This document shows, piece after piece, positions 905 through 12,736 of a DNA stretch of 12,736 nt. The notes under the pieces are model-generated. The model was not told the DNA's origin and did not search any database. It saw nothing but the letters and a program-made list of their open reading frames with translations. The stretch comes from a virus. Each line of letters begins with the position of its first letter. Position 1 is the first letter of the stretch. The position numbers were made by a program, and so were the translations under genes. The stretch is taken from the IMG/VR virus record IMGVR_UViG_3300045988_046651. One strand, given 5' to 3'.

Positions 905-2902
905 ATGATCATTCGGGCAGATGATTTTGACCATGAATATATGAAGCTGACCGGCCTTCGGCGGATGCAGAAGAAGCAGCGCGGGAACCCCGGCACCCGC
1001 GCAAAGCGCAGATACCGGGACGAGGTGACGGCCTTTGATATTGAAACCTCCACGATCCCTGGAACGCAGCAGGCGGTCATGTACATATGGCAGTGGCAGA
1101 TCGGTGATTTTACTGTCATTGGCCGCACTTGGGATGAATTCCGGGATCTTTGCTACCGGCTTAAAGCACAGTGCAAAGAGGATCAGTATATAGTGGTGTA
1201 TGTGCATAATCTATCCTTTGAATTTCAATTTTTGGCCGGCATCTATGAATTTAAGCCGGAAGAAGTGTTCTGCATCGAAAGCAGGAAGATCCTTAAATGC
1301 GATATGTTCGGCTGCCTGGAATTCCGCTGCTCCTATTTGCACAGCAATATGTCACTGGATGAATTCACCCGCAAAATGGGAGTAGAACACGCAAAGCTGC
1401 ACGATTTCGACTACAATCAATTCAGAGGGCCTTGGACAGCTTTAACAGATGATGAGCTGCAATATTGCGTAAACGATGTAAAGGGCCTTGTTGAGGCCCT
1501 TAAAATCGAAATGAAGCACGATGGAGATAATCTATATTCCATCCCTCTGACTTCCACCGGTTATGTGCGCAGAGATGCGAAAGCAGTTCTGAAGGGCGTG
1601 AAGCATTTCATCGTGCAGGATATCCTGCCGGATTATGAAGTATTTGAGATGCTGCAGGAAGCATTCCGGGGTGGAAACACCCACGCAAACCGCTATTATG
1701 CTGGGCTGATTCTGGAGAATGTGAAAAGCGCGGATCGCTCCAGCAGTTACCCCGATGTGCAAGTAAATTGCAAATATCCCATGTCCCGGTGGTTCCGTTC
1801 CGGAAACATCACCACGGACCAATTATTTGACCTCATAGACCGCAGAGGGCGCGCGGTGGCAATGCGTGTCGCTTTATTCAATGTGCGCCTACACGATGAA
1901 TTTTGGGGCTCTCCGTACCTTTCTATAAGCAAGTGCAGGAATATTAAAAATCATGAGCCGGACAACGGCCGCATCCTATCCGCTGACTATCTGGAAACTA
2001 CCATTACAGATATAGACTTGAAGATCATTGCCGACGAATACGATTTCGACAGTATGACCATTATCGACAGCGCGCACAGCAGATACGGCTATTTACCGCG
2101 GAAATTTGTGGAGCTGGTCAACAAGTATTACCGGCTGAAAACAGAGTTGAAAGGCTCGGAGGATCTTTTCGATCAGCTGCTATACATGAAAAGTAAAAAC
2201 AAGCTCAATTCCCTGTATGGCATGAGCGCCCAAAACCCCATCAAACCGGAAACGCAGTTTAAGCAGGGCGAATTCAGCATCTTGGAGGAGGATTACAAAG
2301 AGAAGCTGGAAGCGCAGAACAAAAAAGCATTCTTCAATTACGCATGGGGCGTCTGGTGTACCGCCTGGGCGCGGCTGCGGCTTGAAGAGGGGATAAGGCT
2401 GGCCGGAAGCCGCTTTGTGTATGCCGACACAGATAGCGTGAAATACCTTGGGGAAATAGATTGGAGCCAGTATAACGCCATCCGAGAAGCGCAGAGCAAA
2501 GCCCATGGGGCTTATGCCATCGACAAAAAAGGAAAGGCCCATTACATGGGGGTATTTGAATATGAGGGCGAATATGCGAAATTCTCCACGCTGGGAGCCA
2601 AAAAATACTGCTCCGAGGATACAGCCGGCAATGTCCAGATCACCATTGCAGGCGTCAGCAAAAAAGCAGGAGCCAAGGAGCTGCAGCAGGCCGGGGGGAT
2701 CTCCAAGTTTAAGCCGGGGTTTATCTTCCGGGAAGGTGGCGGTCTTGATGCTGTTTACAATGATGTTCCGGAGATAAAGGAAGTTACGATAGACGGCCAC
2801 CGGCTGGAGATCACCCGCAATGTTTGTCTTGTTCCGGGCGAATACACATTGGGCCTTGCCGGCGACTATGAACGCCTGCTTGACCGGCTGGCGATAGAGT
2901 AA
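905..2902 (+). CDS. Protein-primed family-B DNA polymerase, 665 aa
   Basis: SD GAGGAGGG upstream. ExoI is FDIETS (D45 = nt 1037-1039), ExoII is HNLSFEF and ExoIII is YCVNDV. Motif A is DRSSSYPD, motif B is KNKLNSLYG, motif C is YADTDS (nt 2420-2437) and the KxY motif is GAKKY. The pattern matches phi29-type pPolB. Confidence 0.95.
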   Translation: MIIRADDFDHEYMKLTGLRRMQKKQRGNPGTRAKRRYRDEVTAFDIETSTIPGTQQAVMYIWQWQIGDFTVIGRTWDEFRDLCYRLKAQCKEDQYIVVYVHNLSFEFQFLAGIYEFKPEEVFCIESRKILKCDMFGCLEFRCSYLHSNMSLDEFTRKMGVEHAKLHDFDYNQFRGPWTALTDDELQYCVNDVKGLVEALKIEMKHDGDNLYSIPLTSTGYVRRDAKAVLKGVKHFIVQDILPDYEVFEMLQEAFRGGNTHANRYYAGLILENVKSADRSSSYPDVQVNCKYPMSRWFRSGNITTDQLFDLIDRRGRAVAMRVALFNVRLHDEFWGSPYLSISKCRNIKNHEPDNGRILSADYLETTITDIDLKIIADEYDFDSMTIIDSAHSRYGYLPRKFVELVNKYYRLKTELKGSEDLFDQLLYMKSKNKLNSLYGMSAQNPIKPETQFKQGEFSILEEDYKEKLEAQNKKAFFNYAWGVWCTAWARLRLEEGIRLAGSRFVYADTDSVKYLGEIDWSQYNAIREAQSKAHGAYAIDKKGKAHYMGVFEYEGEYAKFSTLGAKKYCSEDTAGNVQITIAGVSKKAGAKELQQAGGISKFKPGFIFREGGGLDAVYNDVPEIKEVTIDGHRLEITRNVCLVPGEYTLGLAGDYERLLDRLAIE

Positions 2903-7795: not shown

Positions 7796-9007
7796 TTAGT
7801 CAAGCAGCAGTACAACTGCCTTTTCGGTGAGATCACTCCAGCTGCGCTGCGTCTCGTGGATCCACATGGTAGTGTAACCGCCACGGGCATTGAAAGGTGC
7901 AGGATTGGCCCACTGCTGCATAGTGGTGTAGCCGAGGGCTTCTTCATCAAAGATGATGCCGAAGATACCAGCCTGCTCTACCGCGGTTTCGGGGGTAACC
8001 AGAGCGCCATTAGTGCCAATGTAGACAGGCTTCACCTTGATGCTGTCGGGGGTTTCGATGCTCTGCCAGAAGTTAACCGTTTCATTGTCCGCGAAGCGGA
8101 GGAAGTTATCGTGGTAGGTGTCCGCGATCGCCATGGTCTCGGTCTGGAATCTTGCGGGAGCATACAGATAAACTTTCTGCCGATCCAGAGGAGTATGCCG
8201 CAGAATATGCATTTCGTTTACAACAGTCTGGAACATCTCGCTTCTCTCGGTCATCAGGGCCGAAATGGAAGAAATGCGCGCGAATACCCATTGCATAAAC
8301 GGTTTGAAATTCGCGGGCTGATAGACGGTCTGGGCGGTGAGATCTTTAAGACCGGTAAGGGCCTTATATTCGCTCAGCAGATGCACAATGCGGCCTGCCT
8401 GGGCTTCATTACAGATTGCGCCAATATGGTTGGCGATGGTGGCGCGGGCGATGTTCTCGCGGACCTGCTCCAGCTTGTCGGTGACATTCTGAGTTACCAT
8501 TGTAATGAAGCGGCTGAATTCGTCAGGGGTAGTGAACGCGCAATCCAGCTGATCCTTGTAGATGGTGTAATAGTCCTCATAGACATTAGCACCGTAAAAG
8601 TTGGTTTCAAGGATCTTAGGCTTGCGCTGGATCTGCTGATCAACTGCCTTGCCGTCACCATTAGGAGGGGTTTGGCCGGTAGTGTATGCGACCGGGTACT
8701 GATAGCGGTCGTCATTTACCAGATCGCTGTCTGCGATTGACAGCTTGCGAACACGATTCCCGAACCGGATCTGATCCACTTCGATTCCGCCAAATTTACG
8801 CCGGTAGGGACGGATCGAAAAGATAGTGCGGGAAAGCACTTGAGAAATCGCGTTCATCAGCGGGTCGTAGCCGGTTTTGAGCGCGGTCTGCGCCGAAGTG
8901 ATAAAGCTCGCGCTGTCTACCGGCGCGATGGTGGATTTCCCGGTTGCCTGGCTCTGAATCTCATTCAGAATTGCCGAAGCCTGGGTAAAAGTAAGATCAT
9001 TTGCCAT
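7796..9007 (-). CDS. Major capsid protein, 403 aa
   Basis: Its ATG overlaps the stop of the upstream gene (TAATG). Size and position fit (scaffold-capsid-tail). The N-terminal pattern FITSAQTALKTGYDPLMNAISQVLSRTIFSIRPY resembles picovirus major head proteins. This needs HHpred confirmation. Confidence 0.75.
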   Translation of the reverse strand: MANDLTFTQASAILNEIQSQATGKSTIAPVDSASFITSAQTALKTGYDPLMNAISQVLSRTIFSIRPYRRKFGGIEVDQIRFGNRVRKLSIADSDLVNDDRYQYPVAYTTGQTPPNGDGKAVDQQIQRKPKILETNFYGANVYEDYYTIYKDQLDCAFTTPDEFSRFITMVTQNVTDKLEQVRENIARATIANHIGAICNEAQAGRIVHLLSEYKALTGLKDLTAQTVYQPANFKPFMQWVFARISSISALMTERSEMFQTVVNEMHILRHTPLDRQKVYLYAPARFQTETMAIADTYHDNFLRFADNETVNFWQSIETPDSIKVKPVYIGTNGALVTPETAVEQAGIFGIIFDEEALGYTTMQQWANPAPFNARGGYTTMWIHETQRSWSDLTEKAVVLLLD

Positions 9008-9351
9008 TAGGTTTTAACCTCCTTAATAGAATATGGTGTGCCGCTTTGTTTCTGCGGCGGATTGATTATGGATGCCAGGATGTCGTCAACAGATTCCTGG
9101 GGCGGCTGCTGTGCCTGCTGCAAGTTTGCCTTTACAATAGCATCGTTCAGCTTTGCAAACTCCGCGGCCAGCATTTGAGAAAGATCCTCGATGCCCTGCG
9201 GCTTAGGCGGTTCCGGCTCTTCCGGAGCGGGCGTAGGTTCCGGTGCCGGAGTAGGTGCCGGTGCTGGCGTAGGCGCCGGGGCCTGCATTGCCGCGATCTG
9301 ATCTCTTGTGTAGCCAGCTTTCACCAGCAAAATGATATCCTCATAATTCAT
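9007..9351 (-). CDS. Putative scaffolding protein with Pro-rich linker, 114 aa
   Basis: AGGAGGG SD. Immediately upstream of the capsid gene and translationally coupled to it. Small and acidic/helical at the C-terminus. Contains an (APAPTP)-type repeat. The call is by synteny only. Confidence 0.45.
   Translation of the reverse strand: MNYEDIILLVKAGYTRDQIAAMQAPAPTPAPAPTPAPEPTPAPEEPEPPKPQGIEDLSQMLAAEFAKLNDAIVKANLQQAQQPPQESVDDILASIINPPQKQSGTPYSIKEVKT
9230..9283. repeat. Three imperfect 18-nt tandem repeats inside the putative scaffold gene
   Basis: ggcgtaggttccggtgcc / ggagtaggtgccggtgct / ggcgtaggcgccggggcc. On the - strand they encode APAPTP-APAPTP-APEPTP. Confidence 0.85.
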
Positions 9352-10054: not shown

Positions 10055-10239
10055 TTCGGTTCCATCCTCTCCACCAGCTTCGTCATAACAACAGTATTGT
10101 TGTTAATGGCTTCCACGAATTTGTCAGATTCCAGCTTGTGATCTTCACGCTCTTTGTTAAGCATCCAGAACATTGCCACCAGGCACGCCACGGGAACTCC
10201 CAAATTGCTGACGATCTGAACGATTGCGGTTACATCCAT
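10051..10239 (-). CDS. Holin-like protein, BhlA/UviB-type architecture, 62 aa
   Basis: AGGAGG SD 7 nt upstream. Has a single N-terminal hydrophobic helix (VPVACLVAMFWML), then KERE and a charged helical tail, like BhlA. Directly upstream of the endolysin and overlapping it. Confidence 0.72.
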   Translation of the reverse strand: MDVTAIVQIVSNLGVPVACLVAMFWMLNKEREDHKLESDKFVEAINNNTVVMTKLVERMEPK

Positions 10240-10263
10240 GAATACACCTCCTTAAATTTAAGA

Positions 10264-10342
10264 ATAGAGACCCCCATTCAGTCCGCTGCACGGCGGAATG
10301 GGCAGGCTTCCGGCCTTGTGCATAGCCCTTGGGGGTCTCTAT
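10264..10342 (-). ncRNA. 79-nt GC-rich structured RNA element (leader or small RNA) with three-way-junction potential
   Basis: A perfect 12-bp closing stem joins 10342-10331 (AUAGAGACCCCC) to 10275-10264 (GGGGGUCUCUAU). Inner helices are GGGC/GCCC (10328-10325 with 10303-10300), AGGC/GCCU (10316-10313 with 10307-10304, loop CGGAA) and CCGC/GCGG (10296-10293 with 10286-10283). It lies in the only sizeable intergenic gap of the right arm. Confidence 0.6.
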
Positions 10343-10346
10343 GTTC

Positions 10347-10374
10347 ATTATAACACGATGATTTTCTTTGTCAA
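10347..10374 (-). promoter_or_regulatory. Perfect-consensus sigma-A promoter for the lysis and structural operon
   Basis: On the - strand: TTGACA (10374-10369), 16-nt spacer ending TGT (extended -10 TGn), TATAAT (10352-10347). The -10 overlaps the ATPase stop codon. The predicted start is near 10340, at the base of the structured element. Confidence 0.7.
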
Positions 10375-11792: not shown

Positions 11793-11810
11793 AATACCTC
11801 CTAAAGAGAT

Positions 11811-11828
11811 GGGAGCCGTCAGGCTCCC
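11811..11828 (-). terminator. Hairpin between the SSB and methyltransferase genes (weak terminator/attenuator or processing site)
   Basis: On the - strand: GGGAGCC-UGAC-GGCUCCC followed by AUCUCUUU. It is located between the stop of 11837-12214 and the SD of the methyltransferase. Confidence 0.4.
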
Positions 11829-11836
11829 AATGTAAA

Positions 11837-12214
11837 TTAGAACGGAATATCATTGTCACTGTCAGGATCGGCCCATTCCTGTACTACAATAACCGGGGTT
11901 TTAACTTCCTCATCATCCTTGGTTGTGAAGGTCTCGAAGGTGAGGAAAGCACGGGAAATGTCAATCTCGAAATTCATTCCGTCATCAGCTTCTGGCGCAT
12001 CACCCTTCATAAAACGGACATTGAAATAAAGATTCGACCAGTTTCCATCCTCGTCCTTTACACCCAGAGATGTGGAGAACTTGAGGAAGGAAGCGGGCTT
12101 TCCGCCCTTCTTGTACTTCACCTCCTGCGCGTAAACGCGCATTCTGCCATTCAAATTACTGCTCCAGTAATTCACCTTTTCGGGCTGCTTTTTGCTTTGC
12201 TTCTTGATTGCCAT
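11837..12214 (-). CDS. SSB-like single-stranded DNA-binding protein with bacterial-type acidic C-terminal tip, 125 aa
   Basis: AGGAGG SD. Alternating beta-like core. The C-terminus ADPDSDNDIPF matches the D-D-D-(I/L)-P-F tip of bacterial SSBs. Sits in the early position next to replication genes. Confidence 0.65.
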   Translation of the reverse strand: MAIKKQSKKQPEKVNYWSSNLNGRMRVYAQEVKYKKGGKPASFLKFSTSLGVKDEDGNWSNLYFNVRFMKGDAPEADDGMNFEIDISRAFLTFETFTTKDDEEVKTPVIVVQEWADPDSDNDIPF

Positions 12215-12234: not shown

Positions 12235-12366
12235 TTAGGCCGGAAGGGCCTTATTAGCTTCATCGTACAGGCCCAGCAGATGGATATATAACCGGGCCTT
12301 GTCATAGTCTGCGGCCTTGAGGGCCTCGCAAATTTGATACTGAATGCGTCTGCGTTCTTTAGTCAT
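12235..12366 (-). CDS. Unannotated small ORF, 43 aa (MTKERRRIQYQICEALKAADYDKARLYIHLLGLYDEANKALPA)
   Basis: Below the 60-aa cutoff of the ORF track. ATG at 12364-12366 with GAGGAGG 7 nt upstream. It fills the gap between flanking genes exactly. Predicted helical with a basic N-terminus. Confidence 0.5.
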   Translation of the reverse strand: MTKERRRIQYQICEALKAADYDKARLYIHLLGLYDEANKALPA

Positions 12367-12540: not shown

Positions 12541-12736
12541 CCTCCTGCCCAGTGGGCTGTGTTTGGTTAGGCTTTCGCCTGGAACACCCTTATTATAATA
12601 TTATGTATGGCTCTTTTAAAATACTTCTTTCGTTATATGCTTATAGCAGGTTTGATATATCAAATTTGTTATATGGTTATAGCTATTGCGTTATATTGGT
12701 AGCCGTGCGAGCGAGGCCGGAGGCCGAGCGAGCCTT
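12541..12736. repeat. Right inverted terminal repeat (ITR)
   Basis: Reverse complement of 1-196 (183 bp perfect, 2 mismatches in the inner 13 bp). Confidence 0.97.
12592..12620 (-). promoter_or_regulatory. Putative inward-facing promoter inside the right ITR (drives the early right-arm genes)
   Basis: Mirror copy of 117-145. The 54-aa ORF starts 7 nt after the SD that terminates the ITR, so its promoter must lie within the ITR. Confidence 0.45.

Follow-up and report, generated by a model that had tools for sequence, protein, structure and literature searches.

The window analysed here, the 12,736 bp of IMG/VR virus record IMGVR_UViG_3300045988_046651, is the genome of a phi29-like podophage whose 196-bp inverted terminal repeats mark it as a complete, linear, protein-primed genome. 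On its minus strand, at positions 10264-10342, lies a 79-nt element belonging to a conserved structured RNA family that has not previously been catalogued. This family contains at least one pseudoknot, is absent from Rfam 15, and occurs as a single copy in every complete genome examined from the clade that carries it, a large group of uncultured phi29-like phages with genomes of 12-14 kb from gut and rumen. The element shares its layout with the phi29 prohead RNA (pRNA), but its position and its complementarity to ribosome-binding regions suggest a regulatory leader, and we tentatively propose that it is the 5'-terminal leader riboregulator of the late operon, its likeliest role combining this function with that of a stabiliser of the late mRNA. 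Of the four roles raised in a preliminary description of the sequence (5' stabiliser, riboregulator, RNase III processing site and pRNA analogue), the first two are those that fit best.

Structure of the element in the window

The element consists of a closing helix (P1), an arm made up of helix P2, a bulge and hairpin P3, and a second hairpin (P4), and is followed by a short leader to the first late gene:

10330-10342, minus strand: 5' strand of P1, AUAGAGACCCCCA, pairing with 10276-10264 over 13 bp
10325-10328, minus strand: 5' strand of P2, GGGC, pairing with GCCC
10317-10324, minus strand: 8-nt bulge on the 5' side, UAUGCACA, in which UGCAC (10322-10318) is the 5' half of pseudoknot PK1
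10304-10316, minus strand: P3 hairpin, AGGC-CGGAA-GCCU, with the pentaloop CGGAA at 10312-10308
10300-10303, minus strand: 3' strand of P2, GCCC, pairing with GGGC at 10328-10325
10283-10296, minus strand: P4 hairpin, CCGC-CGUGCA-GCGG, in which the loop GUGCA (10291-10287) is the 3' half of PK1
10264-10276, minus strand: 3' strand of P1, UGGGGGUCUCUAU, with the junction ACUGAA (10282-10277) just 5' of it
10240-10263, minus strand: AU-rich leader with the Shine-Dalgarno (SD) sequence AAGGAGGUG at 10253-10245

All of the helices drawn in the preliminary description are present where it placed them, the pairing of the two ends standing with 13 bp instead of the 12 bp counted there. The minimum free energy of the 79-mer was -40 kcal/mol against a mean of -25.9 kcal/mol for dinucleotide shuffles (z -4.1), and none of 200 shuffles equalled it. 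ARAGORN found no tRNA or tmRNA, and a search of Rfam 15 with the whole window and with the 136-nt region 10225-10360 alone returned only chance matches (snoRNA, MIR319) and neither a pRNA nor a C4 RNA. The 7-bp helix CCCAUUC/GAAUGGG, from which two alternative conformations had been suggested, does exist in the window, but it reaches 7 bp in only three of 58 distinct sequences and 2-3 bp in most, so that this competing helix is clade-specific rather than conserved and the idea of two conformations is left unsupported.

An open reading frame (ORF) of 63 aa (10157-10348, minus strand) runs over the element. Its coding reading was rejected, the frame being shifted by P1 indels in the close relatives L002-L004 and the ATG being missing from other clades. 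A 29-aa ORF (2041-2130) is likewise called over the element in the relative L105. The pattern of substitutions and indels at these overlapping ORFs fits RNA structure and not coding sequence.

Comparative support for the fold

Homologues of the gp16-type ATPase encoded beside the element numbered 2,863 at E <=1e-5, and a profile scan of IMG/VR gave at least 430 candidate loci or relatives, of which 80, with ATPase identities of 46-97%, were examined; in most of these a recognisable element lies just 3' of the ATPase gene. The structure of the preliminary description, with a bulge/loop pseudoknot added, was scored on 34 diverse copies aligned by plain MAFFT without fitting to any structure. Paired cells amounted to 84.9%, compared with 54.2% (standard deviation 1.2) when partners were shuffled and 35-47% when they were slid by 1-3 columns, whilst the covariation score was 0.656 against 0.17, with both sides changing in 29 of the 32 pairs. 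Within P1 both sides change in 14 of 15 pairs; all four pairs of P2 covary (89% of cells paired), as do all four stem pairs of P4, and P3, with 98.5% of its cells paired, changes on both sides in three pairs out of four. Compensatory P1 indels were also found in L002, L003 and L004, where C5/G5 has become C4/G4 and an added A is answered by an added U. Across the family P1 measures 9-15 bp and the element 70-79 nt. Folding, covariation in relatives and an Rfam/pRNA search, which were among the checks proposed in the preliminary description, gave a stable fold, covariation that backs the three-way junction in 34 relatives, and no Rfam match.

A covariance model (R1) finds exactly one copy per locus and per genome, always on the late-gene strand, and the copies comprise 59 distinct sequences. 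Helices hold 62 G-U or U-G pairs compared with seven A-C or C-A pairs, an excess which places the structure in the late-gene sense transcript and excludes a structure at the DNA level or on the antisense strand.

In every family member (71 loci) the bulge between P2 and P3 is complementary, through its final 3-6 nt, to the loop of P4 (PK1). At least 13 distinct sequence pairs are used, UGCAC/GUGCA in the window, AACACA/UGUGUU in the 85% relative L105, and AGUCA/UGACU, GCACA/UGUGC, GAAACA/UGUUUC and ACAGC/GCUGU among the others, and the mean PK1 score is 5.87 for cognate as opposed to 3.71 (standard deviation 0.13) for non-cognate combinations. The P3 loop is CGGAA in at least 90% of the 59 distinct sequences, with all helices drifting around it and CAGAA and CGAAA as rare variants. 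The junction between P4 and P1 (J4/1) is poorly conserved (AAGAA, ACGAU, AUUAA or ACUGAA).

Position at the start of the late operon

The element is bounded by the following features:

11364-10348, minus strand: gp16-type ATPase gene, stop codon at 10350-10348
10347-10374, minus strand: late promoter, -35 TTGACA at 10374-10369, 16-nt spacer, extended -10 TG at 10355-10354, -10 TATAAT at 10352-10347
10239-10051, minus strand: holin gene, assigned via phrog_4898, start codon at 10239-10237

The promoter (TTGACA-16-TGtTATAAT), which is of sigma-70 type and overlaps the ATPase stop codon, is the sole 12/12 consensus match in the genome. It places the predicted 5' end of the transcript at about 10342-10340, in the first bases of P1, as had been described, and the holin SD, AAGGAGG, begins 10 nt past P1, again in agreement with the earlier estimate. 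An equivalent promoter matching at 9/12 or better precedes the element in nearly all of about 70 relatives, and in 47 of the 64 relatives with such a promoter the -10 ends 5-8 nt ahead of the element.

Adjacency to the ATPase gene had been taken as a possible functional link, which did not survive comparison. In the clade L086-L096 (e.g. L090, 3568-4632 and 12672-12742) the ATPase gene lies on the other arm beside the polymerase gene and is followed by a strong terminator; the element, about 8 kb from it, remains flanked by promoter and holin gene. In L065, L078 and L079 an additional ORF has been inserted behind the ATPase gene, and there too the element adjoins the late genes. The first late gene itself varies between a holin, a scaffold-like gene and a lysin (L042, L082, L099 and L045 having no holin in this place), with the position of the element kept. 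Because the order promoter, element, first late gene persists when the ATPase gene has been relocated, the constant partner of the element is the start of the late operon and not the ATPase gene.

Complementarity between the P3 loop and ribosome-binding regions

Neither PK1 nor a second complementarity, between the P3 loop and ribosome-binding regions, formed part of the preliminary description. In 37 of the 71 loci the 5' strand of P3 together with the loop CGGA is complementary to a downstream box (PK2) over 6-8 bp, through 20 different sequence pairs that include AGCCGGA/UCCGGCU, CCCGGA/UCCGGG, GCUCGGAA/UUCCGAGU and GCCCCGG/UUGGGGC. The box starts 7-12 nt past the element in 33 of these 37 loci and ends 4-23 nt ahead of the start codon, so that it abuts the SD of the first late gene. 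The PK2 score of cognate pairs was 7.18, as opposed to 6.13 (standard deviation 0.135) when pairs were non-cognate and 4.77 when leaders were shuffled. In the L090 clade all 10 genomes carry a box of 7-10 bp (e.g. CGGACGGA/UCCGUCCG) at +10 to +14, and most of these genomes contain no longer perfect match elsewhere. Two distant relatives, L099 (GCCGGAAG/CUUCCGGC) and L103, have the box as well. In L080-L085 (e.g. L080, ~2644-2675) a hairpin and U-tract (AGGCGGU...ACCGCCUGUUUUAUU) lie between P1 and the box, and termination at this point could release a discrete small RNA.

The window itself offers a distant candidate:

12237-12246, minus strand: candidate distal box, CUUCCGGCCU, a perfect 10-bp complement of AGGCCGGAAG (P3 5' strand, loop and next G)

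This site (12246-12237) precedes the SD of the SSB-like gene (12214-11837) by 8 nt and is kept in L005 and, over 11 bp and despite diverged flanks, in L008. Shuffled probes gave a match of at least 10 bp anywhere in the genome in seven of 300 trials. These observations are suggestive only, and the distal box may be a target in trans in the window clade or a coincidence.

Two further sets of matches were rejected. Upstream 'boxes' in L049, L054 and L068 fall on the PolB F-R-E codons (TTCCGGGAA) and were treated as a coding coincidence. An 11-bp complement at 2401-2411 in the window, antisense to PolB, is not conserved in L005 and is probably due to chance; the polymerase mRNA at 2401-2411 (plus strand) contains GGCCGGAAGCC, the same sequence as the core of the P3 hairpin.

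Proposed role of the element

In this 12.7-kb phi29-like phage the element would form the domain with which the late mRNA, for lysis and morphogenesis, begins at its 5' end. Transcription would begin at a near-consensus promoter whose -10 is 5-8 nt upstream of the element, and with the start site at this distance the 5' end of the RNA would be flush with the GC-rich P1 of 10-13 bp, which would in turn close a compact three-way junction in whose interior the bulge pairs with the P4 loop. The flush helix may shield the long late transcript against 5'-end-dependent decay. The CGGAA loop and the 5' strand of P3 would meanwhile serve as an antisense-type recognition loop for the box abutting the SD, and their pairing in vivo would tune initiation at that cistron, by repressing or by activating it. 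In most clades the target would be the first late gene of that transcript, 8-13 nt past P1, and in the window clade the only good partner would be the box before the SSB-like early gene, which would have to be reached in trans or across 2 kb.

Several observations weigh against this proposal. A box of at least 6 bp is missing at about half of the 71 loci, and the window clade has a short, 28-nt leader with no local box, the best local match in the window being 4 bp; the lack of a local box in the window itself lowers our confidence in the proposal. The distal box is absent from L105, and non-cognate probes also match the distal site over the shared core CUUCCGG. Pairing with a box uses the 5' strand of P3 and would therefore compete with the strongly conserved P3 hairpin, whilst the CGGAA loop is invariant even where there is no box, which suggests that something else, for instance a protein or a different RNA, recognises it. 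Were P1, P2 and P3 to stack, the 10-nt linker may be too short for the box to reach the P3 loop in cis. On the stabilising side, a plain stabiliser would not need a pseudoknot.

Should the element prove to be a leader riboregulator, it would show how phages of about 20 genes that have no obvious late activator control a late promoter of consensus strength with the lysis genes placed first. The RNA is short and its pairings are predicted, making it suited to compensatory-mutation tests.

Comparison with known leader and antisense RNAs

The P1/P7 c4 and P4 CI RNAs are ~77-nt, RNase P-processed RNAs which control the immunity/antirepressor operon of a temperate element, whilst the T4 gene 32 leader and the E. 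coli L20 and S15 operators are autoregulatory and bind a known protein. By analogy, the co-transcribed P1 c4 and P4 CI RNAs and the long-range pseudoknot operators would be models for how the leader may work. As with the C4 RNAs (RF01695), the element is a small structured RNA that would share a promoter with its candidate target and precede it, and in part of the family its loop can pair with a segment at or near the downstream ribosome-binding site, loop and target co-varying among relatives. This C4-like complementarity of an upstream, co-transcribed loop occurs at 37 of the 71 loci and among the genomes of the L090 clade; in the window there is only the distal site at 12246-12237. Unlike C4 RNAs, which have two recognition loops, the element has one, and its box is missing in half of the family; there was no RF01695 match at E <=10 for the window or the element region, and the phage is a lytic one in which the downstream genes encode holin, lysin, scaffold and capsid proteins rather than an antirepressor (C4 control of ant is mentioned in PMC8201110). 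What the element has in common with the T4 gene 32, L20 and S15 operators is a domain, structured or pseudoknotted, that precedes an AU-rich leader with its SD, and a distal loop complementary to a segment beside the SD; those operators bind a known protein, whereas the element has no known binding protein. Because of the missing model match and the different gene context, we do not regard it as a member of the C4 or operator families.

Comparison with packaging RNA

The element might instead be a miniature analogue, possibly a homologue, of prohead RNA, freed from the 5' end of the late transcript and oligomerising through the bulge and P4 loop at the portal vertex, with P1 as a spoke to which the gp16-type ATPase would dock, the arrangement known from phi29. 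We consider this unlikely, and less likely than the leader, though it would be the weightier result if true. The likeness in topology is stronger than was apparent in the preliminary description, which had proposed a pRNA analogue from the paired ends and the three-way junction, because the bulge and hairpin loop covary as the CE and D loops of phi29 pRNA do, a covarying loop pairing that is a hallmark of pRNA (PMC12670572). The order of elements is that of phi29 pRNA domain I: paired ends close a three-way junction whose first arm has a bulge on its 5' side (8 nt, against 9 nt in phi29) beside a 4-bp hairpin with a 5-6-nt loop, and whose second arm is a hairpin with a loop of 5-7 nt. Both RNAs stand behind a strong promoter in a phi29-like phage with protein-primed replication, and the intrinsic terminator that follows the element in L080-L085 could yield a discrete RNA.

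The genome does encode a gp10-type connector and a full-length gp16-type ATPase (Pfam matches PF05352, PF05894 and PF25622), as well as a phi29-type capsid protein. The ATPase includes the C-terminal domain and matches 7jqq_A with E 1.5e-19 in the profile search and 3.7e-12 in the fold search, and 6v1w at 7.6e-3. As judged by the model and the fold search its gp16-type identity is confirmed, yet this is of no help in choosing between the hypotheses. In the fold search, made with a predicted structure, its best structural match was gp11 of asccphi28, a phage which has a gp16-type ATPase forming a self-assembling ring and no evidence of a pRNA (PMC7823558). Since asccphi28 has both connector and ATPase without a pRNA, these two proteins are insufficient as evidence for one.

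Model scores, dimensions and gene layout speak against the pRNA analogy. No RF00044 match was obtained at E <=10 (threshold 100 bits) with the whole window or with 10225-10360, whilst phi29 201-318 as a positive control scored 145.4 bits. The element has 70-79 nt, compared with 117-120 nt for phi29 pRNA domain I and 117-174 nt for prohead RNAs of the phi29 family; P2 has 4 bp against 9 bp in the phi29 C helix, P4 4-5 bp against 6 bp in the D helix, and P1 9-15 bp against about 26 bp in the gp16-binding A helix. With arms of 4, 5 and 4-5 bp, the arc per subunit is by our arithmetic ~13-14 bp rather than ~19-20 bp, a shortness that argues against a five- or six-membered ring round a connector of phi29 size, and the junction linkers (0-1/2/4-5 here, 1/3/0 in phi29) suggest a different coaxial stack. 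Whereas phi29 pRNA is a separate early gene at the genome end with a terminator, the element is predicted to open the late mRNA: a promoter of its own precedes it, yet no terminator follows it in the window or in most clades, and an SD lies 10-30 nt past P1 with an ORF directly after. It is tied to the late-operon start, and the complementarity of its P3 loop to boxes beside ribosome-binding sites is foreign to pRNA.

pRNA has been described as confined to phi29 and related Bacillus phages (PMC11476376), and the Infernal searches by which a further twelve were added in 2025 used the phi29, GA1 and DLc1 pRNAs as seeds, the named examples being Bacillus phages (PMC12670572). If the element were a pRNA counterpart, packaging-motor RNA would not be confined to Bacillus phages and the view in PMC11476376 would be overturned; a form of about 75 nt, derived from the beginning of the late transcript, would occur widely among the small phi29-like phages that infect Firmicutes of gut and rumen, and it would be a far smaller natural RNA scaffold.

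Protein or polymerase operator, structural cap and other readings

About as improbable as a packaging RNA is an operator whose folded domain and CGGAA loop are bound by a phage or host protein, or a nascent-RNA element acting on RNA polymerase, that sets translation, stability or read-through of the late operon and to which the box is merely accessory. HK022 put RNA, which binds the transcribing polymerase, would be the model for the latter. The invariance of the loop while every helix drifts, its conservation in clades that have no box, and the placing of the element always directly past the promoter would all be accounted for in this way, and the hairpin and U-tract between element and first late gene in L080-L085 are the layout expected of antitermination. 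Most clades, however, have no terminator past the element, and in the window no strong one occurs within the late operon ahead of 2931-2906. None of the ~20 genes was recognised as a candidate RNA-binding regulator, and covariation between P3 and the box is left unexplained by an operator.

Somewhat less probable again is a purely structural 5' cap against 5'-dependent RNases, with no regulatory pairing. The aprE and ermC leaders of Gram-positive bacteria are simple hairpins that stabilise mRNAs at the 5' terminus. They share with the element a stable helix flush with +1 (predicted here), a strong SD close downstream, which in the family lies within 15-35 nt of the stem, and a long-lived or abundant transcript, the late operon being a long polycistronic unit of ~7.4 kb. 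For such a cap, however, a plain hairpin like theirs would suffice, whereas the element is a conserved pseudoknotted three-way junction in which P2, P3, P4, the pseudoknot and the invariant CGGAA loop are also under selection.

A metabolite riboswitch, with the three-way junction as aptamer and a switch between the P3 and box helices as expression platform, is very improbable. Its compact pseudoknotted fold directly upstream of an SD and the two mutually exclusive pairings of P3 would suit such a device, but the junction strands are so poorly conserved that no conserved pocket is evident, the box is missing in half of the family and Rfam gave no match.

Least credible is an intrinsic terminator or attenuator, or an RNase III site dividing early read-through from late transcripts, for although P1 is GC-rich and U-rich tails occur in L057, L059 and L090, the stem encloses a multibranch interior of 53 nt, P1, at 10-13 bp, is a short substrate for RNase III, and the tail 3' of P1 is UCUUAAAUUU in the window, uncalled by a terminator scan and, as noted before, no U-tract (AAUCUAAAAA in L011), the U-tract not being conserved in relatives.

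Distribution among gut phages

Megablast against GenBank phages gave no match to the DNA of the window. By tblastn the nearest cultured relatives are the Amedibacillus phages AD70P2 and AD70P3 (Guelinviridae), with ATPase identity of <=32%, whilst uncultured human faecal contigs reach 49%. R1 detects the element in three faecal contigs with ATPase identities of 37-49% (MT836263, MT835998 and MT836115) and misses it in MT836155, MT836587 and AD70P3. By eye, the last three show the promoter followed by the same architecture, with P3 loops CAGAA, AGCC and CCGAA respectively, and the fold of AD70P3 taken alone is not significant (z -0.97). A divergent copy in the cultured phages AD70P2 and AD70P3 is, on this visual comparison, probable.

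Gene content and other sequence features

The remaining genes of the window are arranged as follows:

Left arm, plus strand: ORF of 214 aa, type-B DNA polymerase
Right arm, minus strand, first genes in order: small ORFs, 125-aa SSB-like gene, Dam methylase, gp16-type ATPase
Right arm, minus strand, after the element: holin, amidase-SPOR lysin, 114-aa protein, phi29-type major capsid protein, 462-aa protein, gp10-type connector

The terminal repeats (1-196 and 12541-12736) are 99% complementary, and each holds a promoter-like TTTAAA-17-TATAAT (117-145; 12620-12592) and an internal palindrome (56-103). The 125-aa protein (11837-12214, minus strand) had no Pfam or PHROG match; its C-terminus, ...DSDNDIPF, is like the acidic C-terminal tip of bacterial SSBs, and for this reason it is probably the phage SSB. 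The 114-aa protein (9007-9351, minus strand), in the interval between lysin and capsid genes, has a Pro-rich repeat, APAPTPAPAPTPAPEPTPAPEEPEPP, and an N-terminus common to the first late gene in the clades of L042, L082 and L099; it is probably the scaffold protein. An 18-bp inverted repeat, AATCCCTCCCC...GGGGAGGGATT, at 2899-2938 has the look of a bidirectional terminator; it separates the polymerase gene from the end of the late operon, which converges on it. A terminator-like hairpin, UGGGAGCCUGACGGCUCCCA, with a U-rich tail lies at 11810-11829 (minus strand), between the SSB-like and Dam methylase genes, and could attenuate early transcription ahead of the methylase and ATPase genes.

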